Positions 8,589 to 64,000 of a stretch of DNA of 64,000 nt are shown piece after piece. The notes under the pieces were generated by a model, which did no database searches, was not told the origin of the DNA, and was given only the letters and a program-made list of their open reading frames with translations. Every line of letters begins with the position of its first letter. Positions within the stretch are counted from its first letter, which is position 1. Both the position numbers and the translations under genes were made by a program. Origin of the DNA: Diplonema japonicum (lineage: Eukaryota; Protista; Euglenozoa: Diplonemea); contig OZ025697.1 in assembly GCA_964019335.1 (NCBI GenBank), positions 472,374 through 536,373 of the forward strand. Direction: 5' to 3'.

Positions 8589-9002
8589 TCACGGCTCTAC
8601 TGTTATTTTTGTTTTATCGGCCTGTTCACTCTGCTGAAGTCGAGTGTGCAGTCTCTCTAAATCGTTCTTCCACCAAGTCGCGTACTCCTGCGACCACCAC
8701 TGGTCGTACTCTTGCACCCATGTCATGGTGCCCACGTAGCGTGTTCTGTATTCGAAAATAGGCTTGAAACGCTCGCCGTATTGCTGCTTCCACGTCAGTA
8801 GGACTTCTGTATGCCACCGTAGCCATGCTTCTTTTGTCTTCCTGTTCAAGTCTCTCGCCTGTATACTGGGCAGCGAAGGGGGCGGCTCTTCCGTCTCGAC
8901 AACCACAGTTGCTTTGCAGGCTTTGCTACTGACAGTGCCTCTCCCGTCACCGTTCACACCGCACCACGGCACCTCGTCCACCTGTGAACAAGACTGTCCC
9001 AT
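8589..9002 (-). CDS. Hypothetical Trp-rich small protein with possible N-myristoylation/palmitoylation motif (MGQSCS)
   Basis: 137-aa ORF on the cluster strand that fills the gap between neighbours; N-terminal MGxxCS. Confidence 0.7.
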   Translation of the reverse strand: MGQSCSQVDEVPWCGVNGDGRGTVSSKACKATVVVETEEPPPSLPSIQARDLNRKTKEAWLRWHTEVLLTWKQQYGERFKPIFEYRTRYVGTMTWVQEYDQWWSQEYATWWKNDLERLHTRLQQSEQADKTKITVEP

Positions 9003-61600: not shown

Positions 61601-61809
61601 TGGGTGTCTTTGACAACTTTTTTTGGGTGGAAAAAAATTTTTTTTTTGCCCCCCACCCCCTGTGCCCCCCCGAAAATCTTGGGGGAACCCATTCTTGTAA
61701 CAACACTGGTGGCCACTGTGTCACATACTGCATGGCACCACTAAAATCGAGACAACTTTTTTATTTATTAACCTACAATCCTTCACATTATTACAGGGTG
61801 GGTTCAGAC

Positions 61810-63216
61810 ATGTTGAGGAGACTCAGCATAGTACACCCTCGTCCCTGGGCACAGCTTTCAAGACCGCGTACCTGCGTGAGTCTGGGTGTCAAGAAAGATA
61901 ACCATGACTCAGAAGGGAAAGGCTCAGGTGGTTCAGAAGAGAAGAGCTCAGGTAGTTCAAATTGGAAGCTGGATAATAACAAATGGTGGCTATTAGCATG
62001 CTTTGCGTTTCTTGGTGGTCCAACCTGTCTTGATTTGCTCCGAACTTACATTTATACTCCACACCAAATAAGAAGCAGCATCACACAATTACTTCGATCT
62101 ACCCTTGAGAAGCCTGACTTTGCAAATACATTCGTGCGCGAGGAAGTGAGGGTATTGGCTGAAAAGTTGAACAATTACCTTGACGACTTCAATCCCAACC
62201 GAAGAAATGTATTCGTTGTGGTTGGTGGTCCTAAAGCAGCAGGAAAGACATCAGCCATAGAGCTTGCATTCGGAGGCAAGGACGGAGTGGTATTTATCGA
62301 AACCACCCTTGAAGGCAATAGCCCCCAGACAGGTGACATCTTTAAGAATTCTCTGAATGCGAAGTATGGGAAGAACCATCCTTTAAGTGATGATGCCAAT
62401 GCCATTCTCGAGCAAGCGTTCAAGCAGTCAATGGAGAAGGACGGGCAACCCTTTTTGATCTACTGGAAGATACAAACCAAGAACCTGCAACTCGCAGACC
62501 TTAAGAATGTTGCGAAGATAGCTGCAGGGATGGGAAGGCAGATGACCTACGACCACGCAGGCAGGAACATTCCTGTGATCATCGAGACCTCCAACCCTAC
62601 AGTATGCCCTTTTAATTTACTTGTTAACATTTTACAGCTCGGTGCCTTAATTCCGAAGGTCCATCAGACGTGTGACAACTGGTATCTTGACCACATGAAC
62701 TACAACGACCTTGTGAAGACCTTCGATTGCGATCCTGAAGCCAAACCTTTCAAGGAGAGGCTTGGGGGCAATGCGAAGTACAAGGAACACCTGAGGGAGT
62801 ACTACTCGCACTTCGGAGGGAACATGCGTGGGCTGAAGCAGGAATTCCTGAGACCTTTGGACGGAGTTAAAGACCCTGCAGAGTTCCGGAAGGAGTTTAC
62901 AAAAGAGATCAGTAGGATATTTAAGCAAAATATCGTACTTTGGAATTTAGCAAAACTTGATTCGGACTTCGAATTGGACCTATGCCGCAAAATAGCCAAG
63001 GCTGGACCTCAAGGATTAGCTGACTTTAGTGTGGATCAGCTGGAAGCCATTGCCATTATTGAGAGGAGGTCACTGGATATATTCAGAAACCACAGGAACA
63101 CCTACCGTCTGCACCACATGGCATATGTGCGTCACTTGCTTCAGGGAGAGACGGAGGAGGAGACAACGGCAGCAATGGTGACTCATGGGTGGCTGCCCAA
63201 GGCGGGTGATTCTTAA
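61810..63216 (+). CDS. Putative mitochondrial membrane-anchored P-loop ATPase; in-frame intron 62602-62637
   Basis: Presequence-like MLRRLS start, hydrophobic segment WWLLACFAFLGG, Walker A VVVGGPKAAGKTS, and an FGGNMRGL box. First gene of the opposite-strand cluster. Confidence 0.75.
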   Translation: MLRRLSIVHPRPWAQLSRPRTCVSLGVKKDNHDSEGKGSGGSEEKSSGSSNWKLDNNKWWLLACFAFLGGPTCLDLLRTYIYTPHQIRSSITQLLRSTLEKPDFANTFVREEVRVLAEKLNNYLDDFNPNRRNVFVVVGGPKAAGKTSAIELAFGGKDGVVFIETTLEGNSPQTGDIFKNSLNAKYGKNHPLSDDANAILEQAFKQSMEKDGQPFLIYWKIQTKNLQLADLKNVAKIAAGMGRQMTYDHAGRNIPVIIETSNPTVCPFNLLVNILQLGALIPKVHQTCDNWYLDHMNYNDLVKTFDCDPEAKPFKERLGGNAKYKEHLREYYSHFGGNMRGLKQEFLRPLDGVKDPAEFRKEFTKEISRIFKQNIVLWNLAKLDSDFELDLCRKIAKAGPQGLADFSVDQLEAIAIIERRSLDIFRNHRNTYRLHHMAYVRHLLQGETEEETTAAMVTHGWLPKAGDS

Positions 63217-63601
63217 ACAGCAAATAAATAACCTCGCTTCCCTCTGATTTTCCAACACCACACGTCTTAAAACGCTTTTTGGCGTTACCCTGCATGTCTC
63301 ATATGTGTGCAATTGACATGTTTCCCCTTGTTTAATTCTGAACCCCCCCTTTTTTTTTGCTCCTTTTTCCTCTTCCCTTTTTTCATTATTTTTCACGTTC
63401 TTTCCACAAATAATCACACCACATCACAGGATCAAAGAAAGAAAAAATAACTATTGATTTATGAAAAATAAAGTCGACTTTATTTCCTGCAGCTGATAAT
63501 CTGTCCCGAGGGGGTGATTTTCCCTCGCTTCGCTAGATAGGCCAGCGGGGGCGTGGGGCTGGTCCCCCCTCACCATAGGAAGATTTGAAAAAAAAAAAAG
63601 G

Positions 63602-63945
63602 GACCCCCATGCCATCATCCACAAGGTGGCCATTTACCTCGGCACTGCTCTGGGTGGGCTTACAATGACAGGCTCGTTGGTTGCGTTCACCAAGCTTCAA
63701 GGAGAAATCTGCGGGTTCAAGTTCTCCGGCAAACCTTTAAGCTTCCCTAGTCTGGGGCTGCTGAACGGGGCGCTCGGGTTGGCCCTTGCCGGAGGGATGG
63801 TGCCGTTCCTCATAGCACTGCACCACGTGCACTTTGTGAAGTACCTCATCGCCAATGCGGCGGTTTCATCTGTTCTGGGGTACCATCACGGCGGGGATTG
63901 GCGGCGCAGACATGCCGGTTGCAGTAACGGTGTTGAACAGCTACT
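63602..63945 (+). pseudogene. NNT: NAD(P) transhydrogenase beta-domain fragment, frameshifted and interrupted
   Basis: IYLGTALGGLTMTGSLVAFTKLQG...GY(H)/TAGIGGADMPVAVTVLNSY. Frameshift near 63885. Homology stops abruptly at the SL sequence. Confidence 0.8.
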
Positions 63946-63983
63946 ACCAACGATTCTAAAGCTACAGTTTCTGTACTTTATTG
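63946..63983 (+). ncRNA. Diplonemid-type spliced leader (mini-exon) sequence, 38 of 39 nt
   Basis: ACCAACGATTCTAAAGCTACAGTTTCTGTACTTTATTG. The 3' half CAGTTTCTGTACTTTATTG is the conserved kinetoplastid/diplonemid SL core, and the 5' ACCAACGATT is diplonemid-like. Confidence 0.9.
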
Positions 63984-64000
63984 GTCGTTCGTGTTCTGCT

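Follow-up and report, generated by a model that had tools for sequence, protein, structure and literature searches.

How does a copy of the spliced leader (SL) come to be fused to a coding sequence in genomic DNA? The question is raised by the end of a 64,000-nucleotide stretch of Diplonema japonicum DNA (the window), whose final base is also the last base of its contig (C50, position 536373). Here a fragment of the beta subunit of NAD(P) transhydrogenase (NNT) meets an SL at 63945/63946; the codons for VLNSY and one further T directly abut the SL, with no spacer and no microhomology, and this junction is real in the assembly. Positions 63946-63983 match the SL of the genome's own SL RNA gene exactly, minus its first A, and continue into GTCGTTCGTG; chance cannot account for an exact match of 38 nt, which is far beyond it. 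An earlier note on this DNA had already read the sequence as an SL lacking only its first base and joined without a spacer, and comparison with the SL RNA gene bears this out. No SL promoter-proximal sequence lies upstream of 63946.

The stretch from 63946 to 64000 is identical over all 55 positions to the head of a near-full-length copy, on contig C75, of a retrotransposon that we designate subfamily A. By this sequence identity, the end of the window is very probably the 5' head of a CRE/SLACS-like non-LTR retrotransposon of about 10 kb (Table 1), and on its own the NNT-SL joint is an ordinary retrotransposon 5' end. The earlier note had proposed the 5' junction of a reverse-transcribed, trans-spliced RNA, derived from either a retrogene or an SL-bearing retroelement; the retroelement part of that proposal stands, while the host retrogene falls away.

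Table 1. Features at the right end of the window, with the evidence for each assignment.
Feature	Positions	Strand	Basis
Older degenerate piece of the element family (stop codon, start of 3' UTR)	63524..63590	+	81%, 73 columns, subfamily A 8757-8828, E 2e-10
A12 run and 11-nt linker, left joint of the NNT scrap	63588..63610	+	sequence
NAD(P) transhydrogenase beta scrap, 335 bp, 5 substitutions, 2-nt deletion after 63881	63611..63945	+	98% to C12:37701-38037(-)
SL nt 2-39, probable 5' head of a retrotransposon copy	63946..63983	+	SL RNA gene exon (L038) minus nt 1
Subfamily A 5' UTR (probable), first 17 nt, interrupted by contig end	63984..64000	+	55/55 identity with C75 head

An SL RNA gene at one end of contig C15 displays a conserved upstream flank, a AACCAACG start, a GTACCC intron, an Sm-like site and a T run, and is adjoined by a 5S gene; we take the SL of this genome to be 39 nt long, with its AA start given by the SL gene sequence. 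A truncated element copy immediately precedes this locus (L038:1012-1130 and 1410-1900), where SL RNA genes follow one another at a spacing of 350 bp and the 5S gene is encoded on the opposite strand. Only 6/17 of the bases following the SL in the window are identical to the SL RNA intron, which indicates that the window copy is not an SL RNA gene. It has neither the upstream flank nor a GTACCC intron with Sm-like site and T run, and as a candidate SL RNA gene it was rejected. The variant SL RNA gene offered as an alternative in the earlier note, taken together with the retrocopy of a host mRNA, is hardly credible: a GT does directly follow the SL, and the genome does contain SL-headed retrocopies of other RNAs, but the features of the true gene are lacking and the whole 55 nt are identical to the element head.

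The DNA to the left of the joint is a short decayed duplicate. A DNA search of the genome returned a single other match, C12:37701-38037(-), and Pfam comparison aligns the scrap with PNTB positions 109-197 and 199-217 in two frames, because of the 2-nt deletion. VLNSY thus lies in the second frame and not in the main NNT-beta frame, as had been supposed, and this frame does not stop right after VLNSY; it runs on into the SL as YQRF*. The NNT gene on C12 is open through and past NSYSGW. As the scrap is short and decayed and the C12 gene is open, no working NNT copy was disrupted here, contrary to the insertional disruption that had been suggested; the surroundings are a patchwork. The scrap spans no intron of the gene, so it is compatible with capture as RNA or as DNA alike. 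In the neighboring sequence, positions 61796-63216 contain a gene with no Pfam family, with paralogues on C73 and C81 and a 36-nt GT-AG intron that is spliced out in a contig of run X4, and positions 63434-63534 hold a repeat of approximately 100 bp that is scattered across many contigs.

Since the joint lies within the last 55 bases of C50, it could be an assembly chimera, in which a 55-base repeat tail was put on the contig end. None of the contigs listed from six public runs (X1-X5 and X8) bridges the joint or carries the scrap's own alleles; since contigs drop variants, absence from those listed weighs neither for nor against the joint. A contig of run X1 that covers 63547-63644 crosses the left joint of the scrap without a single difference. 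Several further observations make a chimera improbable: the SL of the window starts at nt 2, as do most element heads; contig C46 likewise breaks off within this head, after 68 nt of it; and at other ends, repeats cap heads that are 36-167 nt long. Neither end of C50 carries telomere repeats, and the 64-kb window contains no 12-mer of the telomere repeat described below; the right end of the contig may be an internal break rather than a tip.

A search of the assembly, as the earlier note had advised, recovered 92 exact copies of the SL followed by GTCGT on 58 contigs, and the sequences of 87 of these heads were examined. The element occurs in two subfamilies. Subfamily A is about 9.6 kb long, and in the copy on C75 the frame is broken once, after the AlkB domain; subfamily B forms tandem units of 10.6 kb on C24 with a frame of 3005 codons. 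A single protein contains an AlkB-type oxygenase domain, zinc fingers, an OTU domain, a reverse transcriptase (RT) and a restriction-like endonuclease (RLE), of which AlkB, OTU and RVT_1 were identified by Pfam. The RLE motifs (C-C-H-C, RHD and R/KPAD) are intact in both subfamilies and follow the RT in the pattern CCHC, RHD, R/KPD given in the available text of PMC12857005. This arrangement, with one ORF, zinc fingers and a poly(A) 3' end in both subfamilies, is that of the CRE clade. Among named relatives, SLACS of D. papillatum ranks first (45%), and the PDB matches are R2 proteins; by sequence, the element appears to be CRE/SLACS-like. The D. papillatum match and the linkage of SL and 5S genes also point to a diplonemid host. 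At the N-terminus of the ORF (for example L013:6696-7601), the AlkB domain bears an HxD...H...R motif; one may speculate that it removes methyl groups that block reverse transcription. Copies are 5'-intact and 3'-truncated, and many are mosaics, with patchworks of element pieces, A/B chimeras and scraps of host sequence.

The heads are concentrated at scaffold ends and point toward them. Within 20 kb of an end lie 80/92 heads, where 8% would be expected by length, and 84/86 of the heads within 50 kb of an end point outward. The RT bodies behave likewise: 38/41 placeable hits point to an end that lies within 20 kb (6/47 hits were not placeable). Contigs that break inside repeats would mimic such end-biased, outward heads; however, in one set of repeat-capped ends, chosen for the presence of a head, 38/38 have an outward head facing the repeats, so contig breakage alone is insufficient to explain the orientation. 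Identical flanks precede heads at several ends, for example on C39, C104 and C13. Taken together, we consider it likely that the window ends in a copy of an SL-headed, CRE/SLACS-like element that resides at chromosome ends and points outward, this copy having been made from a capped RNA and joined bluntly to the NNT scrap. Some observations count against this explanation, among them that the repeat-capped left end of C12 carries an antisense copy and that none of 94 heads is an SL-less, AG-preceded master copy.

The absence of such a master speaks for a classical SLACS element, with masters in unassembled SL RNA arrays that use the SL promoter, the SL of the head being the target or a co-transcribed leader. 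CRE-clade relatives do insert into SL RNA genes, according to the accessible portion of PMC12278014; the SL arrays of this assembly lie at contig ends, where they are probably collapsed, and 12/45 distinct element 3' ends pass from poly(A) into a following SL. By contrast, the upstream flank of the SL gene is present at 0/87 assembled heads, an SL with the GTACCC intron follows 0/45 element 3' ends, and the heads lack nt 1. The strict SLACS hallmarks of a fixed SL RNA gene site and a target duplication were not found in the copies surveyed, all of which lie in assembled DNA. A classical SLACS origin is therefore unlikely, though it retains a somewhat better claim than a chimeric contig.

The lost first base is a general property of the heads. 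The SL is intact from nt 2 in 65/87 of them, and the base before the SL, across 57 distinct flanks, is C in 17, T in 12, A in 10 and G in 7, with poly(A) in the other 11. An A thus precedes the SL in only 10/46 distinct flanks other than poly(A), so loss of nt 1 is the rule, and what the earlier note had observed at this one joint extends to the family. At five loci, from both subfamilies, the SL is followed by a second copy of its own last 16 nt, beginning right after an AG within the SL. This doubling matches the relic-SL signature and would be consistent with re-trans-splicing; slippage of the RT is an alternative. The assembly holds 187 exact SL copies, and most of those that were read also lack nt 1. 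Other dispersed SL-headed families (L035, L036, L037, L041, L042, L031, L033 and others) continue from the SL into GTATCGACC, GTGTCCGA or GTGGTGG. L032 (C2:150571) consists of an SL RNA copy with its intron and without the upstream flank, followed by an ORF of 458 codons, and is possibly a chimera of SL RNA and retroelement.

The repeats at the scaffold ends have an unexpected polarity. Arrays of (GCAAACCC)n run with the C-rich strand to the tip at 56/87 fetched ends and with the G-rich strand at 0/87; the remaining 31/87 have no perfect array by the test used. Ends that were not chosen for a head (n = 27) gave the same picture, with 14 C-rich and 0 G-rich. Six scaffolds (C5, C19, C22, C68, C75 and C84) are C-rich at both ends, and at five ends the repeats cap DNA that does not belong to the element. 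Termination of the arrays is not random: 30/50 stop in one register (p 3e-15) and 40/50 within the C run (p 1e-9). This shared register fits physical chromosome ends, as seen in the assembly only; alternatively, the array ends could stem from trimming, from hairpin ends or from inverted arrays in internal positions. Three tandem copies of TTAGGG have 0 matches in the assembly. Across the genome, the (GCAAACCC)n of scaffold ends (for example L014, L024, L107 and L175) includes stutter variants that carry an extra C or A. At L028 (C30:334.6-335.7 kb), L012 and L026, repeat-capped ends are joined to one another by 200-N gaps within scaffolds, and these are probably scaffolding joins.

A candidate telomerase is encoded by a 1070-aa ORF (L126:648-3860, on C41). 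Its RNA-binding and RT domains are TERT-like, RT motifs are present, and toward the N-terminus there is a weak match to a CCCH zinc finger; the ORF scored 28.4 bits in one scan, above the cut-off of 25, and 23.8 bits, below the cut-off, in another. A search for the telomerase RNA with one guessed template pattern gave 58 matches against 20 in the control, and none of the 30 loci inspected, 20 of which were scanned with Rfam, is a candidate. The GGGTTTGC in the 5' UTR of subfamily A was considered as a template for the repeat and rejected, as the subfamily B head examined does not have it. On balance we lean slightly toward mirror-image telomeres, in which telomerase would add the C-rich GCAAACCC from a G-rich template and the SL-capped, CRE-like element would be primed on the G-rich strand, in outward orientation in the subtelomeres. 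In the literature open to us, which excluded most subscription papers, our searches met neither this repeat described as telomeric, nor telomeres of inverted polarity, nor a telomeric element headed by an SL. PMC10161547, in the parts available together with seven supplements, names SLACS-like ORFs and gives no telomere repeat, a matter on which its other supplements may bear; a term search of the main text of PMC13598402 returned 0 passages.

How might the element be placed in this orientation? The one 3'-OH available at a chromosome tip would give antisense copies. Sense copies that point outward therefore call for a nick in the other strand, here the G-rich one, with the primer on the tip side of that nick. 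The RLE would nick that strand, (GGGTTTGC)n, which runs from tip to center; the primer would then lie on the tip side and the element 3' end would face the tip. The RT would copy the capped, SL-bearing RNA as far as nt 2 of the SL, and at the present copy the cDNA would have been joined bluntly to the NNT scrap. A methylated A adjacent to the cap may block the RT and cause the loss of nt 1, an idea based on the trypanosome cap 4. End-to-end jumping is a known behavior of R2, and jumps of the RT onto other RNAs or broken DNA ends could give rise to the sense-oriented patchworks; the passage of 3' ends into a following SL is as such jumping would give. Broken ends would be re-capped by C-rich repeats on seeds of 1-4 nt, which would leave many copies 3'-truncated. 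Of 43 repeat junctions, 22 were not placeable; 18 of the other 21 have seeds of this length, with a mean of 1.8 nt where random joining would give 0.7, as in de novo healing. For priming on an inverted telomere, we put the chances at about even.

By two counts, insertion into repeat tracts is not the common pattern. A telomeric 8-mer is found within 60 nt upstream of only 9/87 heads, and only 5/45 distinct element 3' ends pass straight into repeats; with no repeats in the window either, this makes the patching of breaks without a specific nick a serious rival. The same element would then act with no telomere-specific nicking, its cDNA or DNA patching broken or eroded subtelomeric ends through template switching or break-induced replication, with repeats added later. 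The 78/87 heads that lack upstream repeats, the patchworks of element and host sequence, with A/B chimeras among them, the flanks shared between ends and the five repeat-capped ends without element DNA are all in keeping with it. Break patching alone leaves unexplained why the sense strand runs toward the tip in nearly all near-end copies and why the RLE motifs are intact; we regard it as a substantial possibility, though the less probable one.

For a specialist, the surprising part is the inverted polarity of the telomeres and not the joint itself, which is ordinary. Should the polarity prove physical, a G-rich 3' overhang could not be the basis of end protection, the reason for telomere polarity would become directly testable with telomerase assays, and standard telomere finders would flag such ends as misassembled. 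The SL heads, in turn, offer a natural record in a euglenozoan of three events: the arrival of the RT at a modified cap, end-to-end joining, and re-trans-splicing. If correct, the outward-pointing element is the reverse of the telomeric retroelements in the cited papers, as far as their accessible text goes (PMC7367193, PMC12857005, PMC10088271).

Comparison with known systems places the element between several of them. According to the reviews PMC9498494 and PMC12134996, it is as a rule the G-rich strand that forms the 3' end of a telomere. The present ends resemble canonical telomerase telomeres in their short tandem repeat with G- and C-rich strands, in seed-based addition and in the TERT-like gene (PMC9498494, PMC12134996, as above), and differ in that the C-rich strand occupies the 3' end wherever an array was seen and the G-rich strand at no end runs 5' to 3' toward the tip. 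In HeT-A arrays, poly(A) lies toward the centromere (PMC10088271, available text), whereas the copies described here are oriented oppositely, outward. Genomic SLs mark reverse-transcribed, trans-spliced RNAs in the relic-SL retrogenes of dinoflagellates, where a further round of splicing at an AG inside the SL results in an additional, incomplete SL (PMC5585692, in the portion available); here, by contrast, in a euglenozoan, it is the retrotransposon itself that travels with the SL. With SLACS, CZAR, CRE1 and CRE2 the element shares a single ORF that encodes zinc fingers, an RT and an RLE, as well as internal repeats, poly(A) and a tie to the SL (PMC12278014, in part). It differs from them in location, its assembled copies being subtelomeric and none of them within an SL RNA gene; in that the SL, minus nt 1, is its own 5' head; and in the added AlkB and OTU domains of a protein of about 3000 aa.

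MoTeR1 of Magnaporthe (PMC7367193) and FoTeR of Fusarium (PMC12857005) are, in the accessible sections of both papers, CRE-related RLE elements at chromosome ends in head-to-tail arrays, with shortened copies that are repeat-capped on 1-4-nt seeds and with the sense 3' side beside the C-rich repeat; FoTeR 3' ends are followed by that repeat (PMC12857005). Confinement to chromosome ends is common to these elements and the present one. The 5' end of MoTeR is always at the tip (PMC7367193), while here the 3' end faces it in 84/86 copies. Copies here are also 5'-intact and 3'-truncated, and most heads have no flanking repeats, so that repeats on both sides, as in MoTeR and FoTeR, are not the rule. 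Priming of the element would nevertheless follow the strand chemistry of MoTeR and FoTeR, mirrored by the telomere. In sum, this is an element of CRE-clade anatomy that departs from the defining targets of both SLACS and MoTeR and would work like MoTeR and FoTeR.
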